This document shows, piece after piece, positions 14,238-50,736 of a DNA stretch of 64,000 bases. Source of the stretch: a virus. Numbering within the stretch: position 1 is the stretch's first letter; each line of letters opens with the position of its first letter. The notes under the pieces are model-generated. The model did no database searches and was not told where the DNA came from. It worked only from the letters and a program-made list of their open reading frames with translations. Location: IMG/VR virus record IMGVR_UViG_3300020061_000004, positions 32,001 through 96,000 of that record; one strand, 5' to 3'. Made by a program: the position numbers and the translations under genes.

Positions 14238-17200
14238 TTATTTTACTTCTACTAGGTTATTTCCATCATACCTAAATACCTTACCTGCAAGTTTATAAGA
14301 CTTTCCGGGTGTAAAGGTTGTTACTCCTTTTGCAGACATGTTTTGGGGAGCAGTATATTGATTAGGCTGGATAGGAGTATTAGCAGTGAATGTAGGATTA
14401 TATCCGTTATAGTTACCATATTGATCAAATGCTTTAGACATCTTCTGAATAAGGTCTCCATTACGGTTTAAAGCTGCATTTTCAGCTACTGTCTTGTAAA
14501 GACTATCCAAAGCTGTAAGCTTCTGCTCCTGCTGTTTAGCCTTACCAGTAAGTACTTTTTCTTCGAAAGCTTCACGACTTTGCTGATCAGACTGAGCTTG
14601 CCTATCTCTAGCCTGAGTATTGTATTGAATCTCTTGATTCTTAATCTGGGCATTTTGATTCTCATAATTACCAATTACCTGATTGTTTAATGCATATTTA
14701 CGTGAAGCTAAGTTTGATATATTAGCTAACTGTGCTCCTATATTATTTGGAGCAGTTTCTTGTACAGCTTTAACAGCAGTATTGAAATCAGTTTCATTAG
14801 CATTTAATGCCGCTGTAGGATCAACCTGATGAAGCTGTAATTGATTTATCTTAGTAGGATTATATTTCTCTGCAAGACGTTCACTACCAGCAACATATGC
14901 ACCTATTGGAGAAGCAAGATCATACCAGTTAAGAGGTTGATTAAAATTACTCTTAGGTTGAGGTACTCTTTGTAAGTTATTAACTATAGGAGATGGTTGT
15001 ACTTTATCATTATACTGTCTTGGAGCTTGCTTTTGTGGTGGTATGTCATTATCAGTCCACATACGAGGTCCCACAGCCAGATTAACAAGGCGTTTACCAA
15101 GATTATTATCAGGATATAATTCTGCTAATTTCTGAAGATTTTCAGGGTCTTGTAATACTCCGGGTTTAAACTGTCCTCTTTTAACACCACTAGTAGCATC
15201 ATCCTTATCATATACAAGTCCTGCTTTAACAGCCTTATCATATCCTTGATTCTGGATACCTTCCTGCCACATTTGACGTATAGCATCAGGATTATTCTTT
15301 AATGCAAAGGTATAAGCAGCTCTCTGAAGATCAGCATTACTTTTAACATTAGCTACATTTACACCTGCTTTCTTAAGTTGATCAACATATTCATCAACTG
15401 TAGTATTATCAGGGAATGCATCTGAATTACCAGCAGGAGTGGTCTGTCCCGACTTATTTCCAGGATATGCTGTAACACCATTCTGAGCCTTCATTGTATA
15501 TTTCTTACCACCGTATTTCATCTCTTGATCACTAGAACCATCATTATTAATACCAAGAGCAGCTTTAGTCATTTCTTGATGATCAAATAGACGATTAAAT
15601 AGTTCTTCTTTAGTAGGAATTGCTTGGAAACTATCAATATTTAGTTTTGTTGAGTTCTGAGCATATTTATCGAGATAATTCTTTCCCTTACCTGCAAGTT
15701 CTATATTCTTAACAAGTTTACCTCTTTCCTTTTCAAGATTAGCATTTCCTTCTATGAGAGCTTGAGCATGAGACATGCTACTATTAGTATCAAGTCCTGT
15801 AAGTACTTTAATCTGTTCAGGATTAAGTCTTAAATACTTAGATATTTTATCTCCACGAAGTCTTGAAGTATTTTCTAATACACGGTGAACATCAGGAAGC
15901 ATTTCACCACCTTGTTCATGTGTATTACCATTAGGATCAACTTGCTGCATATTTCCTTGCTGATCAGTATATACTTCACCTTTCTCTGCTTCAACATTAG
16001 CTCTATCAGCCATACTATCAGGAAGTCCACCAACTTGCTGAATTCCTCCAGCTTGCATAATCATATTTTTATCAATTTCATATTCTGAAAGATCATTATA
16101 TAGATCACCACTTGTTCCTACTCCTCCATATTGTTTCTTAAGACTTGGATATTTTGCATATACTTTAGCCTTTACATCAGGTCTATGATGAAGTCCAGCT
16201 AGACGAAGAGCATCTCTACCATCTGCTTTAGTAGGAATAGGATATGAGCGATTTCCACCTGCAAAATCAACTTTCTTAACCATTGGATATGGATGACTCT
16301 TACTACCATAATCACTACTACGAGATAGACCACCTGCTTTCATAGTACTAGTAGGAGCAGCAGGTTGAGTTACTGTTGAATTCTGAGCAGGAGTAGGATT
16401 GGCATTATAATCCTTGAAATATCCTTCATCATTTAACTCTTTTGCACTCTGTAAACGAGCTTGTACATTATTATAAATACTACTATAAGATGCAGGTTTA
16501 AAACTTGCATTATCAATAAAGCTATCATCTTTCAAATAACCTTTATCTTGATAGGATTTTATCATCTTCTGCATATTTCCTTCTCCACCATTATAATTGG
16601 CTAGAAGAAAGAAATCCTGCTGCTTTGGTGTTAGTTTTACACCACTTTGCTTAGTATAAGCTGCTAATTGATCTTGAGACTGTCTCATCATAGCACTCTT
16701 AGCCATTAAAGCATCAGCATCAGTTTTAAATGCAGGAGCTTTCAAATCCATTCCACTACTACTTTCATTTTTTGTAGAAGCATCAAATGTTGTAAAATTA
16801 TTACTAAAACCTTTCGGTAAATAACCTTCTTTTTCTAAATCTTTAGCATTACCTGCAAAAGTATCAAGCCCATAATTATAGAAACCATCTACAGGATAAT
16901 CAGCAGCTTTATCTTTATTCTTACTAACCCAATCTACATATGCCTCAGAAGCATTTCCAGAGGCTTTTTTATCTACTGAACCACTCATACCCTCTTCCAT
17001 TGCGGAAGAGTATAGAAGAGCTGGATTAAGCTTATTTTGCCTTGCAGCAGAATATACCGCATCTCGTACATTACCTTGACTACTTTGGAATTCAGTATCT
17101 AGTTTATTTCCCCAATTATATCTACCTTGATCACTTAAATATGGATTATTAGCATATTTCTTTCTTAATGCATCTTTTGTAGGAAATTGTCCAGCAGACT

Positions 17201-41872: not shown

Positions 41873-43945
41873 TTACCTGGATTGTTTATTATGCTTGAAG
41901 GTGAATGTACTCTGTACCTTTCCAAATCCTTGTCCTATCCTTACAAAGGGTGAAGCAAGCATTGGATCATGTACCTTCTTAGGCATTAGAGGATCAAAGG
42001 GTTGTTCAGCTATATTACTAACAGGATAGTATTTATCCAGATGCTTAGCAAATGCTAAAGCATGCCTGAAGGCCACTATACGGTCATAGTTACCATCCTT
42101 TGGATCATACTTGATAATCTCCATTAGAAGTACAGGGTCCAGAATTCGGGTTATACCAAGCTTGTAGATGGGTTCTCTTGTAACAGGATGTGTTCCTATC
42201 TGTATCTGTTCCTTACAATATTCTATCATTAAGGACATACAGTAGTTAATATTAGCTACTGTTGGTGATAAGCCATATACTTTACCACCTTGGTTAGCTC
42301 TAGTCTTAGGATTTATTTCTCTTGCAATATTAAATCCCTGTCCAAGCATATGTCCTTTATTCTTACGCTCAAAATACTGGATGAATGTACCTGCTGCATT
42401 TTCTGGAAAGCATGTAGCATTATAATAATCCATTAACATCTCAACATCTTCATGCCAAGAATCCATTCTCTCAGGACGAGATGCCAAAGATGCCACCACC
42501 ATATTCTGATAGGTTTCACCAGATACATCTGTCATTCTCTTATAGATGAAGAGTGTCCCTAGAGAGTCAGACCAATCTGATATATCATTATTATACGGGT
42601 CGGCTCCAGCTACATAAAGCCCCATAGGAGCATTTGTAATAGGTTCTTCCCATATTACTATAGGGCAATCTGTGCCTAAGTTTCCTTTTGTTGGAAACTC
42701 TGAGATTGGTAGATCAGTAGGATCAGCATTTTTCTGAATTACCCTACCATTAGAATCTCTATATAGACGTACATAACGTCCCTTAATTTGATTAGTTTGT
42801 AAGTATTCCAGATGCTGTCTAGCTGCTTCCAAAGGGAACGGATTACTACTACCTGATAGAAAGCATTCCTCTGGTGTCAGAGGATGATACATTACAGCCT
42901 TTAAATACTCTTGTTTATCTGGGTCTTTAGACTTGATGAGTCTTTCTTCTTCTATCTTTAAGCGAGCTTTCTCTTTATCTGATACCTTAATAGGAATTGT
43001 CTTAGCTTCTAATCCAATTCCTGTAAATCCTTTTGATAAGAGATAGTCATATAGATTGGAATCAGTCTTACAATCCATTCGGTAAAGACCAGACATGAAT
43101 AAGCCAGTCTTCTTTCCTGTCTCTTCATTTACTACTTCTTGGAAGTTATTAGCTGTGGGATGTTCAAATACACGTTTAGCATCATTACCTTTCTCAAAAC
43201 TACCACCAGTACCCACTAGGATTGGAACACAACGCCAGCCGTATGGTGATAGGAACGCTGGTTTATGTGCTTCAAATACTGGTGAAAATAGATATTTACC
43301 AATTTCATCATATACTGCTGCCTTTGCTGTTGTACCAGCCGCGGCTTCTGTATTTGTACCTTCTTCTGCATTACGAATCATTATATAACTCCACACATGG
43401 TCTTCATTATTCTTGTCTTTAAAACCAAGACGTAATGTTGGCTTCCTCCAGTCTTTATCTAGTTTAGGGATAGCCAATCCTTGCCACATATGTTTCCATC
43501 CAAAATCAATCTTCTCTGTAAGAAGCTTCATGTCTGCTCCATTACCCGCTACAAGTACACTCTGTGAATTCTCATATAATATAGCTGTCATACCAATATG
43601 AGAAGCTTCCCATTCTGATTTACCTCCCTGACGTAATCCCACTTCTATATATCCCTTCTGAGCTACACGAGCTTTCTCAAAATACTCAGCACGTTCCCAT
43701 TCATTATCTCTAAGATCAGGTAGGGATGGTGTACGTACAATGTTTCCCCACTTATCCTTCTTATCCACAATAATATGCCAGTGATTCAAATGCCCATATA
43801 AAATTCCAGGAATATGAACACCACCAATAGTAATACCCCCCATGCACTTTTCAATTTCCCACTCTACAAGAGAAGTGAAATCATCAGTACCGGGAGGTGG
43901 CAAAGTTTTTATATTTCTAAAAAACTCAGTTGTTTTAATCTGCAT
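41873..43945 (-). CDS. terL: Terminase large subunit
   Basis: Walker A-like RQGGKS, Walker B VYDEIG, VGTGG coupling motif, nuclease AGADPY and NYDR. Confidence 0.92.
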   Translation of the reverse strand: MQIKTTEFFRNIKTLPPPGTDDFTSLVEWEIEKCMGGITIGGVHIPGILYGHLNHWHIIVDKKDKWGNIVRTPSLPDLRDNEWERAEYFEKARVAQKGYIEVGLRQGGKSEWEASHIGMTAILYENSQSVLVAGNGADMKLLTEKIDFGWKHMWQGLAIPKLDKDWRKPTLRLGFKDKNNEDHVWSYIMIRNAEEGTNTEAAAGTTAKAAVYDEIGKYLFSPVFEAHKPAFLSPYGWRCVPILVGTGGSFEKGNDAKRVFEHPTANNFQEVVNEETGKKTGLFMSGLYRMDCKTDSNLYDYLLSKGFTGIGLEAKTIPIKVSDKEKARLKIEEERLIKSKDPDKQEYLKAVMYHPLTPEECFLSGSSNPFPLEAARQHLEYLQTNQIKGRYVRLYRDSNGRVIQKNADPTDLPISEFPTKGNLGTDCPIVIWEEPITNAPMGLYVAGADPYNNDISDWSDSLGTLFIYKRMTDVSGETYQNMVVASLASRPERMDSWHEDVEMLMDYYNATCFPENAAGTFIQYFERKNKGHMLGQGFNIAREINPKTRANQGGKVYGLSPTVANINYCMSLMIEYCKEQIQIGTHPVTREPIYKLGITRILDPVLLMEIIKYDPKDGNYDRIVAFRHALAFAKHLDKYYPVSNIAEQPFDPLMPKKVHDPMLASPFVRIGQGFGKVQSTFTFKHNKQSR

Positions 43946-44258
43946 CTCTCTGCATTCTATGAGGAATATTAGTATTCCCTTTTGCTTCAGCCTTAGTTGC
44001 TTCTTTTTCTCTTAATTTATCTATCACTTCCAAAAGAAGAAGATAGTTCTTCATGGTATCTTGTACAGATTTAATCTGTTGTTCAATAGAAGCCACTACT
44101 GTACGCATCATACCACCATTCTTCGTCTCCTTATAGTCCATCCTATCTGTTAGTTGATCTATAGGATTGATGTCAATGTAATTACGCCATTTCTTTAATT
44201 GCTCTTCAGCCCAATCTAAATCTGATGTTATGTAACTATTAACTTTCTTTGCTGCCAT
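43935..44258 (-). CDS. Small helical protein upstream of TerL (possible small terminase)
   Basis: 107 aa, overlaps the TerL start; function inferred from position only. Confidence 0.45.
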   Translation of the reverse strand: MAAKKVNSYITSDLDWAEEQLKKWRNYIDINPIDQLTDRMDYKETKNGGMMRTVVASIEQQIKSVQDTMKNYLLLLEVIDKLREKEATKAEAKGNTNIPHRMQRDAD

Positions 44259-44724
44259 CTATTTGGTTTTGAGCACTAGGTTGGATTTGAACCAACGGTT
44301 GTACGGTTTTGCAGACCGGTGCCTTGGACCCCTCAGCCACTAGTGCAGGTTTCTGTGCGAAATCTAAATACTTTGATATTAAAATCTTATTCTTAAGAAC
44401 GTAATCAAATATCTTCTCCACTATATATCCTGTTATATATGCTCTTGTCTCACCTAGTTTCTCTACTTCAGTCTTCTCGATGATGTAGTCTACAATGTGG
44501 GACACTTCATGTACAATGCAGTTGGGAGTGAGTCCATGTAACTGATAGAAGATGAAGTATTTATGATCAGGTGTATCTAGTGATAAACCATAATAGCCTC
44601 CTTCTGCAAGAGGCTCCATACCATACTTCTTAAGATATCTTGGTACTATCTTTTCAATCTCTTCATCTATAATAATAGTGAGGTTGAACTCAAAGATAGG
44701 TATCTTTATAGTTGTCTTATACAT
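44239..44724 (-). CDS. HExxH (zincin-like) protein whose 3' end contains tRNA-Cys
   Basis: IVHEVSHIVD...ETRAY motif; frame stays open through the tRNA. Confidence 0.65.
   Translation of the reverse strand: MYKTTIKIPIFEFNLTIIIDEEIEKIVPRYLKKYGMEPLAEGGYYGLSLDTPDHKYFIFYQLHGLTPNCIVHEVSHIVDYIIEKTEVEKLGETRAYITGYIVEKIFDYVLKNKILISKYLDFAQKPALVAEGSKAPVCKTVQPLVQIQPSAQNQIDGSKES
44272..44346 (-). tRNA. trnC: tRNA-Cys (GCA)
   Basis: GCACTAG/CTAGTGC acceptor, loop CTGCAAA, T arm GTTGG TTCAAAT CCAAC, U73. Confidence 0.9.
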
Positions 44725-44734
44725 AGAAGATATT

Positions 44735-44809
44735 TGGAAGCGGGAGCGGGATTTGAACCCGCGACCTTTGAGTTATGAGCCCAACGAGCTACCTCTGCTC
44801 TACCCCGCT
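44735..44809 (-). tRNA. trnM: tRNA-Met (CAT)
   Basis: AGCGGGG/TCCCGCT acceptor, loop CTCATAA, encoded CCA. Confidence 0.9.
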
Positions 44810-44815
44810 ATATTA

Positions 44816-45043
44816 TTAATCTTCTATTTGTGTTGCCTTATCAGCTAGATCAGTCTCAAGTTCATCACGATAGTTTTCAAACTTCTTGAGAAGTTCTTCA
44901 TCACTCCAGTTATAATTACCTGTTTGGGGGCGCATCACATGCACAATATGCTGTGAGATACTATACTGGGGAAACAACTCTACTATCTCTACGAAATGAT
45001 GAAAAATCTGTTGCTTGATCTGAGTTTTTTGTTTATTGCTCAT
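44816..45043 (-). CDS. Hypothetical protein
   Basis: 75 aa, overlapping neighbour in the operon. Confidence 0.6.
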   Translation of the reverse strand: MSNKQKTQIKQQIFHHFVEIVELFPQYSISQHIVHVMRPQTGNYNWSDEELLKKFENYRDELETDLADKATQIED

Positions 45044-45461
45044 TGGTTTTTGTTTTGTATGCTGTCCATTTAAGTTCCATATTGATGTTGTTATTCTGAT
45101 TAAAGGCTAACAACTCTTTATCCTTGCAAGTACAATTTGATAAGTTATCAAAATTGCAACAATCAATTCCACAATTTGCTTCTAGTGAAGCTGTCTTTCT
45201 AGTGATTGTACATCCACACATAATACAATGTTCATCAAATCTATCTGTCTTATATCCAGTAGATACTGCATTTGAACTATTGAATGGACACGTTGCACAT
45301 ATAAATCTTCTTCTTGCTATTTCTGCTTGTTCATCTTCAGGAAGGATATCATATTGCAATTTCACTTGATTCACTATCCCCTCCACTATCAAGTCTGCAT
45401 TCTGTACTACTGTCGGCAGTAGTTTTACATATTCTATTAGTCCTTTTAGCATAAGCTTCAT
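45033..45461 (-). CDS. Cys-rich putative Zn-binding protein
   Basis: RRFICATCPF...HCIMCGC...NCGIDCC. Confidence 0.65.
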   Translation of the reverse strand: MKLMLKGLIEYVKLLPTVVQNADLIVEGIVNQVKLQYDILPEDEQAEIARRRFICATCPFNSSNAVSTGYKTDRFDEHCIMCGCTITRKTASLEANCGIDCCNFDNLSNCTCKDKELLAFNQNNNINMELKWTAYKTKTNEQ

Positions 45462-45792
45462 AATACTGTGTTGCTAATGTATTCCTCTGTATTAAGGCTT
45501 TTCTAAGTTTGCCATAGTTTACTTCGAGGAGCAGGTCTTTTGTTGATTCTTTATACCTGATAGACTTCTTTATATTCCTAATCTTATTAATTGTGGACTT
45601 TATAAAGTAGTCTATCTTACGTTTACTTGTTGTTATTGTTCCTAAGTACTTGATACTCACCGATGTAGACTCAAGGCCACTTAGTTTTTTCCTTACTTCT
45701 TTCCAATAAAAATCATTCACACTATCAACAATCTTCTCTTCTATTCCCATCTCACGGGATACTATCTTGCTGATTACTTGAATAGTTTTCAT
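45349..45792 (-). CDS. IHF/HU-like DNA-binding protein
   Basis: 147 aa. ISKIVSREMGI..VSIKYLGTI HU-like pattern. Confidence 0.6.
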   Translation of the reverse strand: MKTIQVISKIVSREMGIEEKIVDSVNDFYWKEVRKKLSGLESTSVSIKYLGTITTSKRKIDYFIKSTINKIRNIKKSIRYKESTKDLLLEVNYGKLRKALIQRNTLATQYYEAYAKRTNRICKTTADSSTECRLDSGGDSESSEIAI

Positions 45793-46133
45793 TAGCTATT
45801 ATCTATTTTAATCAGTACACCAATCACAGGATTAACAGGAAAGTCTAAGTCTGCATTAAGTGTGTAGTCTTTAGAATCTACAGGACGCACTAACATTCCA
45901 AACTTCTTAAGTTTACTCATTGTATTCTTCAGACTATCCTCTGTTTTGAGAATATTTGAAGAAAGAATAAGGTCTTTAGTTTTTCTATTAATCCTATATA
46001 CCATGAAATAAGCAAGGACTGTGAGTTCAGTATCAGAAAGTCGTATATTCTTGAGTAAACAAAAGATACCAATTACTTTCTTTGCCTGTTCCACCTTGCT
46101 ATTGGTTTTAAGTTTGATTTTTACAAGCTGCAT
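45792..46133 (-). CDS. Winged-HTH (RepL-like) protein
   Basis: LSDTELTVL...LKNTMSKLKKFGML; start moved to MQLVK (46133), downstream of the promoter. Confidence 0.5.
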   Translation of the reverse strand: MQLVKIKLKTNSKVEQAKKVIGIFCLLKNIRLSDTELTVLAYFMVYRINRKTKDLILSSNILKTEDSLKNTMSKLKKFGMLVRPVDSKDYTLNADLDFPVNPVIGVLIKIDNS

Positions 46134-46149
46134 TTCCTTAATTTCTACA

Positions 46150-46181
46150 CAAAGATAAGTAATTGATTTCAATTAACCAAA
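46150..46181 (-). promoter_or_regulatory. Bacteroidota-type promoter (HTH-IHF-terminase operon)
   Basis: TTTG-N20-TATCTTTG. Confidence 0.8.
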
Positions 46182-46190
46182 TCTTTTTCA

Positions 46191-46676
46191 CTAATTATGA
46201 TTATTTGCTGTAATTAAGTCTCTATATCTCTCATTTACAATCTTAGCCTGAGCTGATGAAGGTATTCTTCCTGATTCTAATAGGGAAAGGATACTTCTGA
46301 AGTAAGGAGCAGGGGATATTTGTAATATCTTCTTACAACGCTTCTTATATTCCTCTATAACTCCTTGTATTCTAGTGGTATCCTTTGATTTATTCTTCTT
46401 TACTCTTCTGGTTGATGAAGGTTTCTTCATGAAAGAAGCTATTGTTCTTTTCTCATGTGCTTTTGAATGACAATCTGCACAAAGAGTAACTAAAGCTTTC
46501 AAAGGATATTCCCAAGGACTCTTATCTTTGATGTAATAGAGATGATGAACATGCAACATACAATTTGTAGCCTTACAATTCCTGCATGTATACTTATCAC
46601 GGTTTAAAACCTGAACCCTAACTACATCAACCCAGCGTGTATCAAGTAATAATATTTTATATTCTTCTTTTGTCAT
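46191..46676 (-). CDS. HNH endonuclease
   Basis: RDKYTCRNC..LHVHH..LVTLCADCH; start moved to MTKEEY because the ORF-track start is at the terminator. Confidence 0.85.
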   Translation of the reverse strand: MTKEEYKILLLDTRWVDVVRVQVLNRDKYTCRNCKATNCMLHVHHLYYIKDKSPWEYPLKALVTLCADCHSKAHEKRTIASFMKKPSSTRRVKKNKSKDTTRIQGVIEEYKKRCKKILQISPAPYFRSILSLLESGRIPSSAQAKIVNERYRDLITANNHN

Positions 46677-46758
46677 AATATTCTCTGTTGAGTATGCAAT
46701 ACTACGGAAAATTATTGACATTATGCCACTTTTTTCAATATTTATTTTTATATAATAT

Positions 46759-46783
46759 AAAAACCCCTCACTTGGAGGGGCTT
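46759..46783 (-). terminator. Intrinsic terminator
   Basis: AAGCCCCTC CAAGT GAGGGGTTTTT. Confidence 0.8.
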
Positions 46784-46804
46784 GCAACAAAAGAAGGTAG
46801 CAGA

Positions 46805-46951
46805 TTAGACTTTTTTAGCATCTGCTTCGACAGTAGAAGCTACTTCTTCAACCTTTTCAATAATCGGCTCGATCTTTTCCTTGTTATTACGGTAAATTAA
46901 TATACCTGCAATGAACAAACCAAGAGATACAATAGCAACGAGTGGAACCAT
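46805..46951 (-). CDS. Small single-TM membrane protein (48 aa, not in ORF track)
   Basis: MVPLVAIVSLGLFIAGILIYRNNKEKIEPIIEKVEEVASTVEADAKKV; own promoter and terminator. Confidence 0.75.
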   Translation of the reverse strand: MVPLVAIVSLGLFIAGILIYRNNKEKIEPIIEKVEEVASTVEADAKKV

Positions 46952-46969
46952 ATGTTTCAAATTTAGATA

Positions 46970-47001
46970 CAAAGATAATAACTTCTTAGGAAATTACCAA
47001 A
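46970..47001 (-). promoter_or_regulatory. Bacteroidota-type promoter
   Basis: TTTG-N20-TATCTTTG upstream of the 48-aa membrane ORF. Confidence 0.8.
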
Positions 47002-47075
47002 TGGCACGGGAGGCTTGATTCGAACAAACATCAAAGGTTTTGGAGACCTCTATTCTACCATTGAACTACTCCCGT
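47002..47075 (-). tRNA. trnW: tRNA-Trp (CCA)
   Basis: ACGGGAG/CTCCCGT, loop CTCCAAA, encoded CCA. Confidence 0.9.
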
Positions 47076-47076
47076 A

Positions 47077-47151
47077 TGGGGTGAAAGGACGGTAATGATC
47101 CGTCTTCTATGCCTTCACAGGGCACCGCATCACCTTAATGCTTCAGACACC
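47077..47151 (-). tRNA. trnH: tRNA-His (GTG), atypical acceptor stem
   Basis: GTGCC CTGTGAA GGCAT arm, G-1:C73, CCA; three pyrimidine mismatches in the acceptor stem. Confidence 0.75.
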
Positions 47152-47161
47152 ATGTATTATG

Positions 47162-47232
47162 TACCCGATCATGGGAACGATCCACATTCTCCTGCTTCAA
47201 AGGCAGGCATAATACCTTTATACTACTCGGGT
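47162..47232 (-). tRNA. trnQ: tRNA-Gln (TTG)
   Basis: CCTGC CTTTGAA GCAGG arm; ACCCGA/TCGGGT acceptor. Confidence 0.8.
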
Positions 47233-47237
47233 ATAAG

Positions 47238-47308
47238 TTGGGGAAGATTGAATCGAACAACCACCAAAGGTGTCAGAGACCTTTGTACTACCATTATACG
47301 ATTCCCCA
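47238..47308 (-). tRNA. trnQ: tRNA-Gln (CTG)
   Basis: TGGGGAA/TTCCCCA; loop CTCTGAC. Confidence 0.88.
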
Positions 47309-47354
47309 AAATGAAGGTTCCTTACTCAATGAAGTATGCCTACAACCCAAAATG

Positions 47355-47427
47355 TGGTACAGGTTAGTTATGATCTAACTCCTCGGGATTTTCAGTCCCG
47401 CGCTTCTACCAAGTTAGCTTCTGTACC
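47355..47427 (-). tRNA. trnF: tRNA-Phe (GAA)
   Basis: GGTACAG/CTGTACC; CGGGA CTGAAAA TCCCG. Confidence 0.88.
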
Positions 47428-47432
47428 ATAAG

Positions 47433-47506
47433 AGCCCTAGCCGGAACTCGAAGCCGGTCTGTTCCGCATTACAAGTGCGGCGCTGCACCATATCAGCATC
47501 TCGGGC
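47433..47506 (-). tRNA. trnT: tRNA-Thr (TGT)
   Basis: CCGCA CTTGTAA TGCGG; GCCC/GGGC acceptor. Confidence 0.85.
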
Positions 47507-47555
47507 AGTTGACATTTGATTTTCACATAAAACAAAGTTTCCAAACAAAACATCG

Positions 47556-47656
47556 CTAATGGGGTACGATTCGAACGTACATGCAGAGGTTATTAATTCC
47601 CTATATCTGCACCACCGAGAAAAGGAGGCGAGTCTGCCAAGTTCCAACACCCATTA
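47556..47656 (-). ncRNA. 101-nt tRNA-like RNA with very long variable arm, isotype undetermined
   Basis: TAATGGG/CCCATTA acceptor, GTACG TTCGAAT CGTAC T arm, TGCAGA...TCTGCA long arm, non-canonical loop TTTTCTC. Confidence 0.7.
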
Positions 47657-47661
47657 ATCTG

Positions 47662-47733
47662 CGGGGAAGGTATGGATCGAACATACGACCTGAGAGTTAA
47701 CAGCTCCCTGCTCTACCGCTGAGCTACTTCCCC
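47662..47733 (-). tRNA. trnN: tRNA-Asn (GTT)
   Basis: GGGGAAG/CTTCCCC; loop CTGTTAA. Confidence 0.92.
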
Positions 47734-47790
47734 AAAATAGGGTGTAAGGGTTCTTCCTTACACAGGGTGCGCTTACCCCACTTCCTATTG

Positions 47791-47866
47791 CCGGCAATAC
47801 GGGATTTGAACCCGTGGTCTTCCCGTAGACAGCGGGACAGGGACAACCAGACTCCCCTAAATGCCG
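47791..47866 (-). tRNA. trnD: tRNA-Asp (GTC)
   Basis: TCCCG CTGTCTA CGGGA; G73. Confidence 0.85.
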
Positions 47867-47874
47867 AATAAAAG

Positions 47875-47945
47875 TCTAGCTTGTCTGAATCGAACAGCTC
47901 TTCATGCTTCCAAGGCACGGGTGCTACCATCACACCCCAAACTAG
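47875..47945 (-). tRNA. trnP: tRNA-Pro (TGG)
   Basis: CTAGTTT/AAGCTAG; loop CTTGGAA. Confidence 0.85.
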
Positions 47946-47977
47946 AAATAAAAAACCCTCCTTTAAGGGGAGGGCTT
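47946..47977 (-). terminator. Attenuator terminator in front of tRNA block 1
   Basis: AAGCCCTCC CCTTAAA GGAGGG TTTTTTATTT, between the promoter and the first tRNA. Confidence 0.85.
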
Positions 47978-48001
47978 GTATGAACACGCTTGAAAATTTA
48001 G

Positions 48002-48082
48002 TTATCGTGATATAATATAGCCTCTCCCAACGATTGTATCGGGTTGAAAATTAAAGGTATTATTATGCCAATTCTGAATCAT
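48002..48082 (-). CDS. Leader peptide 1 (26 aa) MIQNWHNNTFNFQPDTIVGRGYIISR
   Basis: ATG 4 nt after the -7 box; residues 3-16 are all amino acids of the downstream tRNAs. Confidence 0.85.
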   Translation of the reverse strand: MIQNWHNNTFNFQPDTIVGRGYIISR

Positions 48083-48086
48083 ACAG

Positions 48087-48118
48087 CAAAGATAAGAAGA
48101 ATATTTGATATTACCAAA
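48087..48118 (-). promoter_or_regulatory. Bacteroidota-type promoter of tRNA operon 1
   Basis: TTTG-N20-TATCTTTG. Confidence 0.85.
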
Positions 48119-48137
48119 TTTCTTATAAAAATAAATG

Positions 48138-48220
48138 TGGGAGCTGATGGAGTTGAACCACCCGAGTCCTAAGACAGCAGATTTACAGTCTGCCCCGCTA
48201 CCCCTACGGTATAAACTCCC
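48138..48220 (-). tRNA. trnY: tRNA-Tyr (GTA)
   Basis: GCAGA CTGTAAA TCTGC; long variable arm. Confidence 0.92.
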
Positions 48221-48306
48221 AAATAGCTACCCTCGGTATTTCCGAGACCAGCTTACAATATAGGGTCACTCACTTAAGAGGCTCACTAGTTTCCTAGTTA
48301 CTTTAG

Positions 48307-48393
48307 AGGAAGGTGTGGGATTTGAACCCACGGAACTTTTACATCCTCCGGTTTTCAAGACCGGTGCAATCAGCCAGACTCTGCCAACCTTCC
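48307..48393 (-). tRNA. trnS: tRNA-Ser (TGA)
   Basis: GGAAGGT/ACCTTCC; loop CTTGAAA; long variable arm. Confidence 0.92.
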
Positions 48394-48467
48394 TAAAGCT
48401 CACCCCGTAGGTGAGCAGCGCAATTAAGGCTTTGCGATGCCATTACAGCCACCCTTTGGGCAGTGTG

Positions 48468-48552
48468 AGGAGAGTAGAAGATTCGAACTTCTGGGGCTTT
48501 AACACCCAACACTTTAGCAAAGTGTTACGATAAACCTCTCTGACAACTCTCC
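48468..48552 (-). tRNA. trnS: tRNA-Ser (GCT)
   Basis: GGAGAGT/ACTCTCC; loop TTGCTAA. Confidence 0.9.
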
Positions 48553-48557
48553 TTATG

Positions 48558-48637
48558 TATCCCTAACATGATTTGAACATGCACCCCGAAGGAGCAGATT
48601 TTAAGTCTGCCGCGTCTACCAGTTTCGCCATAGAGAT
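48558..48637 (-). tRNA. trnL: tRNA-Leu (TAA)
   Basis: GCAGA CTTAAAA TCTGC; TGGTAGAC D-loop. Confidence 0.9.
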
Positions 48638-48643
48638 AAGTTG

Positions 48644-48728
48644 TAGGTATAGTAAGAGTCGAACTTACACGCCCATTACAGGCATCAGTTTCTAAGACTG
48701 ACGTGTCTACCAATTCCACCATATACCC
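48644..48728 (-). tRNA. trnL: tRNA-Leu (TAG)
   Basis: TCAGT CTTAGAA ACTGA; long variable arm. Confidence 0.92.
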
Positions 48729-48730
48729 AT

Positions 48731-48766
48731 AAAATAAAAACCCCCGCTATCCGAATTAGCAGGGGA
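48731..48766 (-). terminator. Attenuator terminator in front of tRNA block 2
   Basis: CCCCTGCTA ATTCGGA TAGCGGGGG TTTTTATTTT. Confidence 0.85.
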
Positions 48767-48808
48767 GTGACGATATTGTCTTTTACGAACGCTTCTTTAT
48801 CACATACT

Positions 48809-48871
48809 TTACCCCTTACTATCGAGTGATAGATAACTTAAGGAGAGCAAATATGAGTTTAAATTCTTCAT
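48809..48871 (-). CDS. Leader peptide 2 (20 aa) MKNLNSYLLSLSYLSLDSKG
   Basis: AATTAAA-ATG start; Leu/Ser/Tyr run matches the downstream Leu, Leu, Ser, Ser, Tyr tRNAs. An in-frame upstream ATG also exists at 48937. Confidence 0.85.
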   Translation of the reverse strand: MKNLNSYLLSLSYLSLDSKG

Positions 48872-48945
48872 TTTAATTAGGGGTCTCAGGAAAGATATAG
48901 AAACAATCGTGTGTACAATAAATCTATATCTATCCATCAACACAA

Positions 48946-48977
48946 CAAAGGTAATACAAATAATTGATATTACCAAA
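48946..48977 (-). promoter_or_regulatory. Bacteroidota-type promoter of tRNA operon 2
   Basis: TTTG-N20-TACCTTTG. Confidence 0.85.
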
Positions 48978-48985
48978 TTTAAGTG

Positions 48986-49058
48986 TAGTAATGATGGGAG
49001 TTGAACCCACTACCCCGGAGGTATCAGCTCCGTACTCTAACCGTTGAGCTACACTACT
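48986..49058 (-). tRNA. trnI: tRNA-Ile (GAT)
   Basis: CGGAG CTGATAC CTCCG. Confidence 0.9.
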
Positions 49059-49060
49059 AG

Positions 49061-49132
49061 TGGACTGAGATGGAATTGAACCATCGACTTGCACATTATG
49101 AGTGTGCTGCTCTACCCCTGAGCTATCAGTCC
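49061..49132 (-). tRNA. tRNA with CAT anticodon, probably Ile2 (lysidine) type
   Basis: GGACTGA/TCAGTCC, A73, loop CTCATAA; leader 3 contains ATA and no internal ATG. Confidence 0.85.
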
Positions 49133-49139
49133 ATAAAAG

Positions 49140-49211
49140 TACTCTGTGACGGTTACGATCCGTCTTCCACGCTTTGAAGGAGCGTTATCCTAGCCACTAG
49201 ACGAACAGAGC
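49140..49211 (-). tRNA. trnE: tRNA-Glu (TTC)
   Basis: GCTCTGTTCGTCTAG Glu-like body; ACGCT CCTTCAA AGCGT (C33). Confidence 0.85.
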
Positions 49212-49218
49212 ATATATG

Positions 49219-49290
49219 AGCACCAGTGGGTAATCGAAACCCAATCCGCGCATTGGAAGTGCGCTATAATAGCCGTTATACGACTGATGC
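49219..49290 (-). tRNA. trnG: tRNA-Gly (TCC)
   Basis: GCGCA CTTCCAA TGCGC; U73. Confidence 0.88.
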
Positions 49291-49292
49291 AT

Positions 49293-49367
49293 TGGTAGAG
49301 ATACCAAGAATCAAACTTGGGTCTAGGGATTAGAAGGCCCTCGTTCTATTCATTGAACTACATCTCT
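49293..49367 (-). tRNA. trnR: tRNA-Arg (TCT)
   Basis: Loop CTTCTAA; encoded CCA. Confidence 0.88.
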
Positions 49368-49368
49368 A

Positions 49369-49444
49369 TGGAGGACACAGAAAGAGTCAAACTTTCGTTC
49401 CCTGCTTCGTAGGCAGGAGTTCTATTCAGCTGAACTATGCGTCC
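49369..49444 (-). tRNA. trnR: tRNA-Arg (ACG)
   Basis: CCTGC CTACGAA GCAGG; encoded CCA. Confidence 0.88.
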
Positions 49445-49515
49445 TAATACTGGGCCAGAGTATACAGGTTACTGTCCCTCTATGAATTTCACATAGTTAC
49501 CCCAGTAGAATACTG

Positions 49516-49588
49516 TCTCCCCGTTCGGAATCGAACCGAACCCCACGGTTTAAAAGACCGTTGCCTACAACCAGTTTGCTACAAGGAG
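49516..49588 (-). tRNA. trnK: tRNA-Lys (TTT)
   Basis: ACGGT CTTTTAA ACCGT; T arm TTCGG TTCGATT CCGAA. Confidence 0.88.
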
Positions 49589-49593
49589 TTTGT

Positions 49594-49633
49594 AAAAACA
49601 AAAACCCGAAGCTGCTAGTTGCGGCTCCGGGCT
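49594..49633 (-). terminator. Attenuator terminator in front of tRNA block 3
   Basis: CCCGGAGCCGC AACTA GCAGCTTCGGG TTTTTGTTTTT. Confidence 0.85.
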
Positions 49634-49655
49634 CTGTTAAAAGAAATTGTTAGTA

Positions 49656-49757
49656 TTATCCTAAATCAATATCTTGTAGACATATAGCTCCGGAGCCAGG
49701 TTTTCTTCCTGCCTCGCGAATAATTTCTATGCCACCGATATTGATAACTAAATTCAT
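49656..49757 (-). CDS. Leader peptide 3 (33 aa) MNLVINIGGIEIIREAGRKPGSGAICLQDIDLG
   Basis: ATG 4 nt after the -7 box; Ile/Gly/Glu/Arg/Lys run matches the downstream tRNAs. Confidence 0.85.
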   Translation of the reverse strand: MNLVINIGGIEIIREAGRKPGSGAICLQDIDLG

Positions 49758-49761
49758 AATG

Positions 49762-49793
49762 CAAAGATATGTTAAATATTTGAAACTACCAAA
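49762..49793 (-). promoter_or_regulatory. Bacteroidota-type promoter of tRNA operon 3
   Basis: TTTG-N20-TATCTTTG. Confidence 0.85.
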
Positions 49794-50026
49794 TCTTGTT
49801 TTAAAAAGGCTATTACTTCTTTAAGTTCTTGTTCAGGAGTAGATGGCCTTATCATAAATTCTCTTTCCCGATTTGTTACCATATATCCAAAAACATTTGA
49901 GGATGCTAGGAAACCCTTTGAAATATTAAGAAATGATGGAAGGTGTGTTCCAGACATAAATCCATAATCTCCTCTACTATGAGAGAGTCCTGTCTCCTTA
50001 TCTATATAAGCTAATACAGCATTCAT
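49772..50026 (-). CDS. Hypothetical protein
   Basis: 84 aa; coupled stop/start. Confidence 0.6.
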   Translation of the reverse strand: MNAVLAYIDKETGLSHSRGDYGFMSGTHLPSFLNISKGFLASSNVFGYMVTNREREFMIRPSTPEQELKEVIAFLKQDLVVSNI

Positions 50027-50310
50027 TATACAAAGATTAAACTACACAATGCTTTTGATATCCATACAATCTCACCTTTAACTGGTTCTTGATCAATCTC
50101 AATAGATATATGAGTGCCATCAATCCCTGCAAACTCTCCATTATCTAAGGGTGTCATATTCCAATGGCTTATCTCACGTTTATCATTGAGGATGGTATAA
50201 TAGCTACCATCCTCTTTTATTAATCTTATGCCGGGACAGAGATATTTCTTTGGAATATATCTATCCCTCCAATCTCCCTGTATCATCAGAGTCACTCGTG
50301 TGGGTCTCAT
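50026..50310 (-). CDS. Hypothetical protein
   Basis: 94 aa in the operon. Confidence 0.6.
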   Translation of the reverse strand: MRPTRVTLMIQGDWRDRYIPKKYLCPGIRLIKEDGSYYTILNDKREISHWNMTPLDNGEFAGIDGTHISIEIDQEPVKGEIVWISKALCSLIFV

Positions 50311-50334
50311 AACTAAAAAAAATTCGTTCGTACG

Positions 50335-50736
50335 TTAACTCAAATTATCACTATCCATACCAAGCCCGAAATCATCAATCGAATCTGGTTTGATGATAGT
50401 GTCATTAGACGCGCCTTCTCCAGATTTTTCTGTTATGAATCCGTGTATACTATACCCTGTAGCGGCTGTATAGATACGCTGAAACTCACTATAAGGCAAT
50501 GCCACTACAAAACTATCCCCGTCCTTAAAACGCACCGTTGTCGATTTTTTATCCTGGCTACGATTGAATCGAGAGATATCATTGATATCAAACGTCATAG
50601 GAGCATAGTCATAAAAGAACTCTGGTTGGAAGTTGTTCTGCTCTTCACCACTCAGAAGCTTCTTTAGTTGAAGTTCCTGATCGTCCTCTTTCTTAACACG
50701 CATCTCTGTCCATCTCACCTGCATTTCTACTATCAT
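50335..50736 (-). CDS. Hypothetical protein
   Basis: 133 aa in the operon. Confidence 0.65.
   Translation of the reverse strand: MIVEMQVRWTEMRVKKEDDQELQLKKLLSGEEQNNFQPEFFYDYAPMTFDINDISRFNRSQDKKSTTVRFKDGDSFVVALPYSEFQRIYTAATGYSIHGFITEKSGEGASNDTIIKPDSIDDFGLGMDSDNLS

Follow-up and report, generated by a model that had tools for sequence, protein, structure and literature searches.

How does a phage that carries its own tRNA genes decide when to make them, and in what amount? tRNA genes are usually viewed as constitutive or under growth-rate control, and we know of essentially no account of how phages time and dose their own tRNAs. The locus described here lies on the minus strand of a 64,000-nucleotide stretch of a soil phage, referred to below as the window, and it suggests an answer, namely that this phage probably makes a block of tRNAs when the codons read by that block are translated slowly. 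The sequencing runs containing the stretch are of DNA only.

Three units, each made of a promoter, an ORF of 20-33 codons, an intrinsic terminator and 5-9 tRNAs, are found on this strand (Table 1). They had been described as identically built in a first-pass annotation of the locus, and our tRNA, ORF, promoter, terminator and folding analyses agree with that description. The pattern TTTG-N20-TAnnTTTG, typical of Bacteroidota promoters, occurs 8 times in the window, always on the minus strand, versus 0.31 occurrences expected from shuffled sequence; three of the 8 copies stand at the heads of the units and share the general TTTG/TAnnTTTG pattern only. The short distance between the -7 box and the ATG in units 3 and 1 suggests that these mRNAs may be leaderless, and leader 2 has an additional in-frame ATG at 48937 that would make it a 42-codon ORF. 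The terminators, each a hairpin followed by a T run, end 0-9 nt ahead of the first tRNA of their block. This gap is too small for a promoter, and the regulated genes are thus left without one after the terminator. A promoter, a small ORF and a terminator without tRNAs are also present at 47001-46761.

Table 1. Features of the three tRNA units, in order of transcription (positions in the window)
Feature	Position	Strand	Basis and details
Promoter, unit 3	49762..49793	-	Motif match, TTTG-N20-TAtcTTTG; ATG 4 nt after -7 box
Leader ORF 3, 33 codons, MNLVINIGGIEIIREAGRKPGSGAICLQDIDLG	49656..49757	-	ORF list
Roster run 3, INIGGIEIIREAGRK	49701..49745	-	Cognate codon for each of 7 block 3 tRNAs
Region 2, unit 3 (antiterminator strand)	49679..49699	-	Pairs with terminator 5' arm; -23.5 kcal/mol vs null mean -11.6, p 0.004
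Intrinsic terminator 3	49597..49638	-	Folding; core stem 49631-49624 / 49612-49605, then T run; 11-nt loop; ends 8 nt before tRNA-Lys
tRNA block 3: Lys-TTT, Arg-ACG, Arg-TCT, Gly-TCC, Glu-TTC, CAT (Ile2 or Met), Ile-GAT	48985..49588	-	ARAGORN, Rfam
Promoter, unit 2	48946..48977	-	Motif match
Leader ORF 2, 20 codons, MKNLNSYLLSLSYLSLDSKG	48809..48871	-	ORF list
Roster run 2, SYLLSLSYLSL	48824..48856	-	11/11 at codon level; cognate codon for each of 5 tRNAs
Region 2, unit 2	48811..48822	-	Folding, complementarity; pairs with region 1 (48845-48839) or terminator 5' arm
Intrinsic terminator 2	48741..48765	-	Terminator scan; 9-bp stem, T run to 48732; ends 3 nt before tRNA-Leu
tRNA block 2: Leu-TAG, Leu-TAA, Ser-GCT, Ser-TGA, Tyr-GTA	48137..48728	-	ARAGORN, Rfam
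Promoter, unit 1	48087..48118	-	Motif match; ATG 4 nt after -7 box
Leader ORF 1, 26 codons, MIQNWHNNTFNFQPDTIVGRGYIISR	48002..48082	-	ORF list
Roster run 1, QNWHNNTFNFQPDT	48035..48076	-	14/14; cognate codon for each of 9 tRNAs
Region 2, unit 1	48018..48028	-	Folding, complementarity; pairs with region 1 (48057-48038) or terminator 5' arm
Intrinsic terminator 1	47953..47977	-	Terminator scan; T run abuts tRNA-Pro
tRNA block 1: Pro, Asp, Asn, tRNA-like gene, Thr, Phe, Gln-CTG, Gln-TTG, His (47150-47080), Trp	47002..47945	-	ARAGORN, Rfam

ARAGORN placed 20 tRNAs on the minus strand at 47002-49588, and one further tRNA at 47080-47150 was recovered with Rfam (31.4 bits) and called His-GTG by relaxed ARAGORN. 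The resulting order, K R R G E CAT I / L L S S Y / P D N T F Q Q H W, is the one given by the first-pass annotation, as is the division into three blocks. The CAT tRNA of block 3 is probably Ile2, a reading based on a leader that has ATA and no internal ATG. Block 1 includes an odd long-arm tRNA-like gene with anticodon TTC (about 47652-47552). The Met and Cys tRNAs of the window have no leader.

The leaders name the tRNAs that they precede. Each had been said to contain a run built from the amino acids of its own block, with all of them present, and this was confirmed for 13/15 (INIGGIEIIREAGRK), 13/15 (LNSYLLSLSYLSLDS) and 14/14 (QNWHNNTFNFQPDT) own-block residues. At the codon level, a cognate codon lies within the run of the own leader for 21/21 window tRNAs, and run 1 carries CAG and CAA, matching its two Gln isoacceptors. 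The three leaders score 10, 11 and 14 against their own blocks versus 1-3 against the others, and among the 316 short ORFs of the window each of them has the highest score for its block (14, 11 and 10, versus 7, 8 and 8 for the next best). Chance probabilities of the match were 1e-5, 5e-7 and 1.2e-4, from 2,000,000 random peptides each. One mismatch is seen in leader 3, which retains Val and Ala codons even though a search of the 123-kb record found no Val-TAC or Ala-TGC tRNA.

We consider it likely, on the strength of this match and of the folding and comparative results given below, that the units are ribosome-mediated (leader-peptide) transcription attenuators comparable to those of trp, his and ilv, each controlling the tRNAs by which the codons of its leader are read. 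Transcription by host-type RNA polymerase would start at the Bacteroidota sigma-A-type promoter while a ribosome translates the short leader. If all codons of the run are decoded fast, the ribosome would move onto region 2, the segment behind the run, and with region 2 covered the terminator hairpin (3:4) would form and transcription would stop 0-9 nt short of the first tRNA. Should any one of the block's tRNAs be in short supply, uncharged or damaged, the ribosome would stall inside the run, covering region 1 and leaving region 2 free to pair with the 5' arm of the terminator (2:3), and polymerase would read through into the tRNA block. The outcome would be a closed loop in which decoding capacity for 16 amino acids is maintained by three channels under separate control, each working as an OR gate with 5-9 tRNA species as inputs. 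In this model, translation of the leaders, coupling of ribosome and polymerase, the direction and size of the response and its natural trigger, perhaps anticodon nucleases or starvation, are what we infer, and it is by computation that we established the architecture, the codon-tRNA match, its covariation, the conserved complementarity with its position, and the position-dependent folding.

A sequence complementary to the terminator 5' arm had been noticed right after each run, and in the window it indeed begins 2-7 nt behind the run. Across the window and its relatives, region 2 pairs with the terminator 5' arm in 16/16 units, starting 2-17 nt after the run (at most 10 nt in 14 of them), and this complementarity exceeds that of shuffled sequences at p<=0.05 in 14/16 units (Fisher 1.5e-17). 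The two strands change together, as seen in L003 (GCAGGGGAG/CTCCCCTGC) and L004 (GCAGGGGGG/CCCCCTGC). The antiterminator of unit 2 is weak (-11.5 kcal/mol, p 0.048).

The mutually exclusive structures foreseen in the first-pass annotation were found in the predicted folds, where the leaders adopt a terminator or an antiterminator and the choice switches with ribosome position at the run boundary. Simulated stalls inside the run leave region 2 free, while ribosomes just past the run block it. With the leading edge of the ribosome mask at +9, the antiterminator probability of unit 1 is at least 0.98 at codons 3-16, the whole run, and falls to 0.15 at codon 17 and to 0.02-0.07 over codons 18-26. 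The corresponding values in unit 3 are at least 0.98 over codons 5-18, then 0.65 (codon 19) and 0.12 (codon 20). Unit 2 rises from 0.07 without a ribosome to 0.5-0.6 for stalls late in the run. With a longer edge of +14, stalls at the last 2-3 codons of the run also cover region 2, and among the codons affected are AAA and AGA in unit 3 and GAT in unit 1, each occurring just once in its unit. For transcripts reaching region 3 at equilibrium, units 3 and 1 form the antiterminator also without a ribosome, and again with a ribosome at the stop codon, and termination in these units must therefore rest on kinetics or on the 1:2 helix of the full-length fold. Such 1:2 helices appear for each of the three units when the full-length transcript is folded to minimum energy; in unit 3, region 2 is then paired with part of the run itself (region 1, about 49720-49708). 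When the fold is cut short ahead of region 4, unit 2 alone is dominated by 1:2, and 2:3 prevails in units 3 and 1. At equilibrium the full-length transcript favours the terminator at most stall positions. The attenuation reading of the first-pass annotation is thus supported by the folds and by the covariation described below, but its claim that the tRNAs are transcribed only when a cognate tRNA fails is too strong, because the ribosome-free equilibrium fold also favours the antiterminator in units 3 and 1.

The same parts could be wired in the opposite sense, with a fast leader ribosome following polymerase closely and suppressing the terminator, so that the tRNAs are on when decoding is good and off on a stall. 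A ribosome is known to suppress terminators a few base pairs behind a translated gene, according to the portion of one report available to us (PMC4824070), and the stop codons here lie about 20-45 nt ahead of the terminator stems. From that distance, however, a ribosome on the stop codon does not reach the stem, and this reading leaves unexplained both the conserved, covarying segment, paired with the terminator 5' arm in 16/16 units, that directly follows the run and the coincidence of the run boundary with the boundary of the stalls that free region 2. We regard it as improbable.

If the leaders sense decoding, their codons should follow the tRNAs in relatives, as the first-pass annotation had anticipated, and they do so even where the blocks are partitioned differently. 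Nine non-redundant related phage contigs divide their tRNAs among blocks differently, and the leader codons change accordingly, even at the level of Arg and Gln isoacceptors. In L015, P Q H R L L S S Y E stand behind MKNLSLHSSRPYQQLSLLGSGAMFDW and A D N W T R M K I M F V G C behind MMMNNWFNIIDTAFATRNCGKVGILYWS; in L040, P T F Q Q H R W stand behind MIKFQHTRFWFTQPT... Leaders preceding Arg-ACG use CGN and those preceding Arg-TCT use AGA, and while the window, with Gln-CTG and Gln-TTG, has both CAG and CAA, L003 and L004, with Gln-TTG only, have CAA only. A cognate codon is present in the own leader for 126/131 tRNAs (five lack one), versus 76/184 in the other leaders of the same genome. Own-block scores added up over 18 units (from the window and 8 related loci) give 212, whereas permutation gave 78.1 on average and 164 at most, with 0/200,000 permutations reaching the observed sum; with one genome per partition type (7 units), 2/5040 permutations reach the observed score. 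Because related units share ancestry, the permutation p-values overstate independence. The score is 205 in frame versus 35 and 38 in the shifted frames. This frame-specific match, kept across partitions and at the isoacceptor level, requires selection on the decoding of these codons here. The design is present too in two cultured phages, Cellulophaga phage phi17:2 and Leptolyngbya phage Lbo-JY46, and was not found in crAss001. Asp and Ile-Ile-Ala tRNAs of L040 have no leader.

These comparisons also bear on the view that the terminators are constitutive and leaky and the short ORFs small proteins or evolutionary relics without a sensing role. In L041, a P/Q/H/R/L/S/Y-type leader, which is a relic, precedes only Pro, Val and Gly (own score 1) and no longer matches its block; this exception, the Val and Ala codons kept by leader 3 and the tRNA-less promoter, ORF and terminator of the window would all suit such a view. 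It does not account for a frame-specific match to the downstream tRNAs that persists across partitions and isoacceptors, and we give it marginally less credence than the inverted wiring. A ribosome-free RNA switch, in which the run is a row of specifier codons binding tRNA anticodons directly as in T-boxes, would equally make the run codons cognate to the downstream tRNAs. We think this very improbable, given that start codon, stop codon and reading frame are conserved, that the match is frame-specific, that some leaders (in L040 and L042) share an ATGA overlap with an upstream ORF, as seen in translationally coupled genes, and that 0/25 matches in a permissive Rfam scan of 43500-50500 are a T-box or another riboswitch, all 25 being tRNA or weak tRNA-like. 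That the match is a coincidence, for which nothing beyond the shortness of the ORFs speaks, is refuted by the permutation and frame controls and has next to no probability.

Ribosome-mediated attenuation of this form has well-known enterobacterial relatives in which one leader senses several amino acids, Thr and Ile in the thr leader and Ile, Leu and Val in that of ilvGMEDA. The phage units resemble them in the short leader ORF, here predicted to be translated, with regulatory codons for more than one amino acid, and in the four RNA segments, predicted to form 1:2, 2:3 and 3:4 helices, in which a codon-stalled ribosome is predicted to free the antiterminator. They differ in controlling tRNAs instead of enzymes, in their phage setting and Bacteroidota-type promoters, in rosters of 3-8 amino acids (5-9 tRNA species) in the window and up to 14 tRNAs in a relative, and in using mostly one or two codons per amino acid without long single-codon runs. 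Leader-peptide attenuators also precede aminoacyl-tRNA synthetase genes, as in pheST. In bacilli, a His leader attenuator precedes hisS paralogs, as described in the available part of one study (PMC2965389). Such leaders likewise attenuate a component of the translation apparatus serving the sensed codon; unlike the window units, they sense a single amino acid, act on a protein product and belong to cells. T-box riboswitches share with the proposed units the sensing of tRNA status and a terminator/antiterminator switch, but bind the tRNA directly through one specifier codon and need no ribosome. The trn operon of Anabaena PCC 7120 is a stress-induced tRNA array (PMC8421152, PMC10272220) that, like the units proposed here, stays silent as an accessory array until translation is impaired; as far as the accessible portions of these papers go, its control is exerted at the promoter, where the repressor TrcR binds direct repeats, and the words attenuat-, leader and terminator occur 0 times each in PMC8421152. 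Leaderless polycysteine short ORFs are Cys-responsive attenuators in mycobacteria (bioRxiv 10.1101/834739), and in having the short sensing ORF right at the 5' end of the mRNA they would resemble units 3 and 1, if these are leaderless; in the part of that work available, they sense one amino acid, serve protein-coding operons and are not in phages. Classical leader-peptide attenuators act on genes of amino-acid biosynthesis and transport and on aminoacyl-tRNA synthetase genes, a scope that the tRNAs regulated here fall outside. Our literature search found no published account of leader-peptide attenuation of phage tRNA arrays, and in our reading what is new is the application of the known trp/ilv-type mechanism to tRNA genes.

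The same genome encodes an RNA-repair gene set elsewhere, with RNA ligase, kinase, CCA-enzyme-like and RlaP genes, which fits the idea of tRNA damage without proving it. It is possible, though we hold it to be doubtful, that roster attenuators are a widespread undescribed control layer in Bacteroidota phages (soil, marine and cultured Cellulophaga phages), acting as multi-input OR gates that register when any one of as many as 14 tRNA species is depleted or cleaved and answer with replacement tRNAs. Together with these repair genes, they would form an inducible counter-defence against host anticodon nucleases and not merely a tuning of codon usage.

If the attenuation model is right, a leader that reads the decoding speed of the codons served by its tRNAs would let the ribosome feed back directly on tRNA supply, and the reach of leader-peptide attenuation, one to three amino acids, would grow to rosters of as many as 13. 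The rule that the leader spells the block predicts which tRNAs are co-regulated and can reveal tRNAs missed by gene finders. The cultured carriers phi17:2 and Lbo-JY46 make experiments possible, and the question of why phages carry tRNAs becomes testable, since the sensor codons state what the phage monitors.

Our results show that the tRNA array of this virus is divided into three minus-strand units with the same order of parts. Each promoter is followed by a short ORF (33, 20 and 26 codons) and by a G+C-rich hairpin with a T run, and the first tRNA begins 0-9 nt further on. The gap from the last tRNA of a preceding block to the next promoter is 0-18 nt. Since there is no space for a promoter between terminator and tRNAs, the tRNAs of a block would be made by read-through only. 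ARAGORN identified 20 tRNA genes in the array; one further tRNA was recovered by Rfam and is read as His-GTG by relaxed ARAGORN. The Met and Cys tRNAs lie outside the three units, with neither leader nor terminator, and a 161-codon ORF that spans the tRNA-Cys gene is either over-called or truly overlaps it.

The first-pass annotation had described in each leader ORF a run built from the amino acids of the tRNAs behind it, and the three runs were confirmed exactly as given. At the codon level, under ordinary wobble rules, a cognate codon was found inside the own run for 7/7, 5/5 and 9/9 tRNAs, and the segment scores were 10, 11 and 14 with the own block vs 1-3 with the other two. When all six frames of the window are searched for ATG-to-stop ORFs of 20-60 codons (316 in total), each leader ranks first for its own block (next best 7, 8 and 8), and random peptides of proteome composition would reach the observed scores with probabilities of 1e-5, 5e-7 and 1.2e-4. 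The match is also specific to the reading frame, with sums over 16 units of 205 in frame vs 35 and 38 in the shifted frames.

The promoter motif TTTG-N20-TAnnTTTG, which we take to be the Bacteroidota sigma-A promoter type, occurs in 8 copies in the window, all on the minus strand, vs 0.31 expected. The spacing of 4 nt between -7 box and leader ATG in units 3 and 1 recurs in four units of the related loci L003 and L004, in unit 1 of Cellulophaga phage phi17:2 and at the 4-codon ORF of Bacteroides phage crAss001 (locus L061); it suggests that these mRNAs may be leaderless or nearly leaderless. A small hydrophobic ORF similar to the one behind the fourth promoter of the window immediately precedes the leader in L015, L040 and L042, with an ATGA overlap in the latter two. 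The features discussed are collected in the table.

Positions of features in the window, in the parent genome and in related or reference loci
Feature	Sequence	Position	Strand	Remark
Promoter, unit 3	window	start 49793	minus	TTTG-N20-TAnnTTTG
Promoter, unit 2	window	start 48977	minus	TTTG-N20-TAnnTTTG
Promoter, unit 1	window	start 48118	minus	TTTG-N20-TAnnTTTG
Fourth promoter	window	47001-46761 region	minus	same type; directly after tRNA-Trp; then small ORF and terminator
ORF behind fourth promoter	window	ATG ~46950		small membrane-type protein, up to 55 aa
-7 box to leader ATG, unit 3	window	49761-49755		exactly 4 nt
-7 box to leader ATG, unit 1	window	48086-48080		exactly 4 nt
5' extension, unit 2	window	48945-48872	minus	74 nt between promoter and leader ATG; absent in relatives
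Hairpin in extension	window	48931-48923 / 48901-48893		9 bp
In-frame ATG in extension	window	48937		8 nt past -7 box
tRNA genes (ARAGORN)	window	49588 to 47002	minus	20 genes
Further tRNA (Rfam)	window	47080-47150
Met and Cys tRNAs	window	44271-44809
tRNA-Cys	window	44271-44346		spanned entirely by the 161-codon ORF
161-codon ORF	window	44239-44724	minus
Site of absent Val-TAC and Ala-TGC	window	48985-48977		cleanly missing
Val-TAC and Ala-TGC	L003	5008-5170		end of block 3
Long-variable-arm tRNA-like gene	window	47552-47652	minus	triplet TTC (Glu)
Long-variable-arm tRNA-like gene	L003	6195-6295		triplet GTC (Asp)
Long-variable-arm tRNA-like gene	L004	6191-6286		triplet GTC (Asp)
Leader with Pro, Val, Gly tRNAs	L041	6230-6660
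Homing-endonuclease-type ORF	L040	6732-7116		inside tRNA block
Homing-endonuclease-type ORF	L056	3562-4389		inside tRNA block
gp078	phi17:2 (L057)	13335-13436		annotated hypothetical protein
gp077	phi17:2 (L057)	15258-15377		annotated hypothetical protein; overlaps promoter and leader of unit 2
RNA-repair-type gene run	genome (G000:C1, locus L059)	687-6865		outside the window
Ribonucleotide reductase and ThyX	genome	6000-14500

Comparison with relatives was based on 53 loci fetched from IMG/VR using the terminase-like protein, 12 of which have 3 or more tRNAs on the strand of the terminase gene and upstream of it; the other 41, many of them short or cut upstream, have fewer than 3 by default ARAGORN and were left out. 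L005, L006 and L016 repeat L003, L007 and L015 in both leaders and tRNA lists and were removed, as was L008, whose block is truncated where the locus begins. The counts also omit the unusual long-arm tRNA-like genes found in L003 and L004. Together, the window and the 8 remaining loci contribute 18 units. Leader codons were expected to covary with tRNA content, and they do: the matched sum is 212, whereas permuted pairings average 78.1 with a highest value of 164 (0 of 200,000 as high as observed), and with one genome per partition type the observed value is reached by 2 of 5040 permutations. A cognate codon is present in the own leader for 126/131 tRNAs, vs 76/184 when tRNAs are scored against the other leaders of their genome.

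The individual loci illustrate how closely the leaders follow. L003 and L004 (terminase identity 73% and 64%) have the same block partition as the window; their leaders carry only CAA, with Gln-TTG alone, vs CAG and CAA with Gln-CTG and Gln-TTG in the window, and their block 3 adds Val-TAC and Ala-TGC behind the runs IIIVGRGAER and VIIAGRGAERIVK. In the more distant L011, L015 and L040 (45-49% identity) the tRNAs are sorted differently and the leaders match the new partition. L015 has the leader MKNLSLHSSRPYQQLSLLGSGAMFDW before the block P Q H R L L S S Y E and MMMNNWFNIIDTAFATRNCGKVGILYWS (23/23 codons) before A D N W T R M K I M F V G C, L011 has MKRNNWFNNAAAFTTTDCGKGLLYCWN (17/17 codons) before A G D N W T R F C, and the L040 leader before P T F Q Q H R W begins MIKFQHTRFWFTQPT and continues. 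Even the Arg isoacceptors are tracked, as leaders before Arg-ACG carry CGN and those before Arg-TCT carry AGA. In L040 and L056, homing-endonuclease-type ORFs lie inside tRNA blocks, with the roster of the upstream leader unsplit.

Some leaders are out of step with their blocks. Leader 3 of the window keeps GTT and GCA and scores 13 with the tRNA set of L003/L004 vs 10 with its own, and no convincing Val or Ala tRNA was found in the 123-kb record (estimated 76% complete). It looks as if these two tRNAs were lost recently and leader 3 has not yet caught up. In L041 a leader of P/Q/H/R/L/S/Y type, MNTFLRPSLSLYSQHLYAGQGNSV, has behind it only tRNAs for Pro, Val and Gly (the Val tRNA alone being confirmed by Rfam) and fits the P/Q/H/R/L/S/Y/E block best (score 13 with L015-A); this unit is a relic. 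Leaders can thus lag behind their tRNA blocks, and some tRNAs have no leader at all. A further conserved gene, tRNA-like and with a long variable arm and a pyrimidine after the anticodon, lies between tRNA-Asn and tRNA-Thr. ARAGORN missed it in the window, where no Glu codon occurs in leader 1; a special or decoy tRNA is one possibility.

The transcripts are predicted to have the pairing expected of a switch between a terminator hairpin (regions 3 and 4) and an antiterminator, in which the terminator 5' arm (region 3) is captured by a strand just after the run (region 2). The best duplex partner of the arm starts 2-17 nt past the run in 16/16 units (at most 10 nt in 14), and in none does it lie within the run or ahead of it. 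Compared with 500 shuffles, the duplex is stronger at p<=0.05 in 14/16 units, the other two giving 0.064 and 0.148; the Fisher combination of 1.5e-17 is rough, being based on mononucleotide shuffles with each p floored at 0.002. The pairing is kept despite changes on both strands between L003 (GCAGGGGAG/CTCCCCTGC) and L004 (GCAGGGGGG/CCCCCTGC). Minimum-energy folds of the full-length transcript predict, for each of the three window units, a formed terminator and a region 2 paired with part of the run (region 1), the classical combination of anti-antiterminator and terminator.

The fold check proposed in the first-pass annotation supports mutually exclusive terminator and antiterminator, with a predicted switch at the run end. 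Transcripts up to region 3 were folded with about 25-30 nt masked by a ribosome (leading edge +9), and the probability that region 2 captures the arm was read out. For unit 1 it is at least 0.98 with stalls at every codon from 3 to 16, 0.15 at codon 17 and 0.02-0.07 at codons 18-26; for unit 3 it is at least 0.98 at codons 5-18, 0.65 at codon 19 and 0.12 past the run at codon 20. The antiterminator of unit 2 is weak: late-run stalls give up to 0.5-0.6, no ribosome 0.07 and a covered region 2 at most 0.1, a result reproduced in a second fold analysis. Because the probabilities drop past the run, its end would be the last stall position with the antiterminator free; with a ribosome edge of +14, stalls at the final two or three codons of the run would already leave region 2 covered. 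Truncated folds of units 3 and 1 favour the antiterminator when no ribosome is present and also with one at the stop codon; efficient termination would therefore have to depend on kinetics or on the pairing of regions 1 and 2 in the full-length fold. When full-length equilibrium folds were combined with the ribosome mask, the terminator won at most stall positions; such folds were set aside as unsuited to a switch that acts during transcription, in favour of transcripts ending before region 4, a limitation that stands.

Similar units were found in cultured phages. In phi17:2 (NC_021798.1) the leader MKIQRLHLQELEQPIISGGTGV precedes Pro Glu Gln His Leu Leu Arg-ACG, and a GTG-start ORF, partly annotated as gp077 and reading ...TKTGITVIDKTKGARAYLGDTVIG, precedes Ala Lys Ile Gly Met Asp Thr Val Arg-TCT Met Tyr. 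Within this array the small proteins gp077 and gp078 look mis-annotated, gp078 lying on an apparent Ser-type tRNA that is not annotated. Leptolyngbya phage Lbo-JY46 (PP438436.1) has three leader-terminator-tRNA units. Phage crAss001, for which transcriptomes are published, was rejected as an example: its array is in the same place and is preceded by a promoter and the 4-codon ORF, and neither such a leader nor such a terminator was found in the four gaps inspected.

The parent IMG/VR record has 123,280 bases. It contains a P22-like portal gene and, beside it, the gene of a 690-aa protein; in Crassvirales and in Cellulophaga phages, relatives of this protein carry the annotation large terminase. 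The stretch was found in four sequencing runs of DNA or unknown type, three of them soil metagenomes, and in no listed RNA run; in a DNA search of 50,697 phage records none covered 80% of it, the matches being single tRNAs only. A gene run outside the window codes for an RNA ligase (PF09414) and an AAA_33 P-loop kinase, together with an RNA-repair nucleotidyltransferase of RlaP type and a protein of the CCA-enzyme family with a PolyA_pol head domain; this set fits, but does not show, pressure from tRNA-damaging host defences.

The Anabaena trn tRNA array is reported to be switched on under translational stress (PMC8421152, PMC10272220); it is the closest functional analogue in the readable literature, although its control is described there as a repressor at the promoter, not a leader. 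No account of leader-peptide attenuation of tRNA genes was found in the full-text literature, which mostly excludes subscription journals, or in papers where a mention could have been expected, PMC2965389 among them. The multivalent thr and ilvGMEDA leaders have the working principle proposed here, and the window units share the leader ORF, the terminator and a predicted antiterminator with that family but fall outside its classical scope, since the genes regulated would be tRNAs.

Taken with the modelled folds, ribosome-mediated attenuation of the tRNA blocks is the best reading of these units and in our view a probable one. Fast decoding of the leader would lead to termination, while a ribosome stalled on any roster codon would allow read-through into the very block that supplies the tRNA for that codon, a logic that would amount to a negative feedback loop on decoding capacity.
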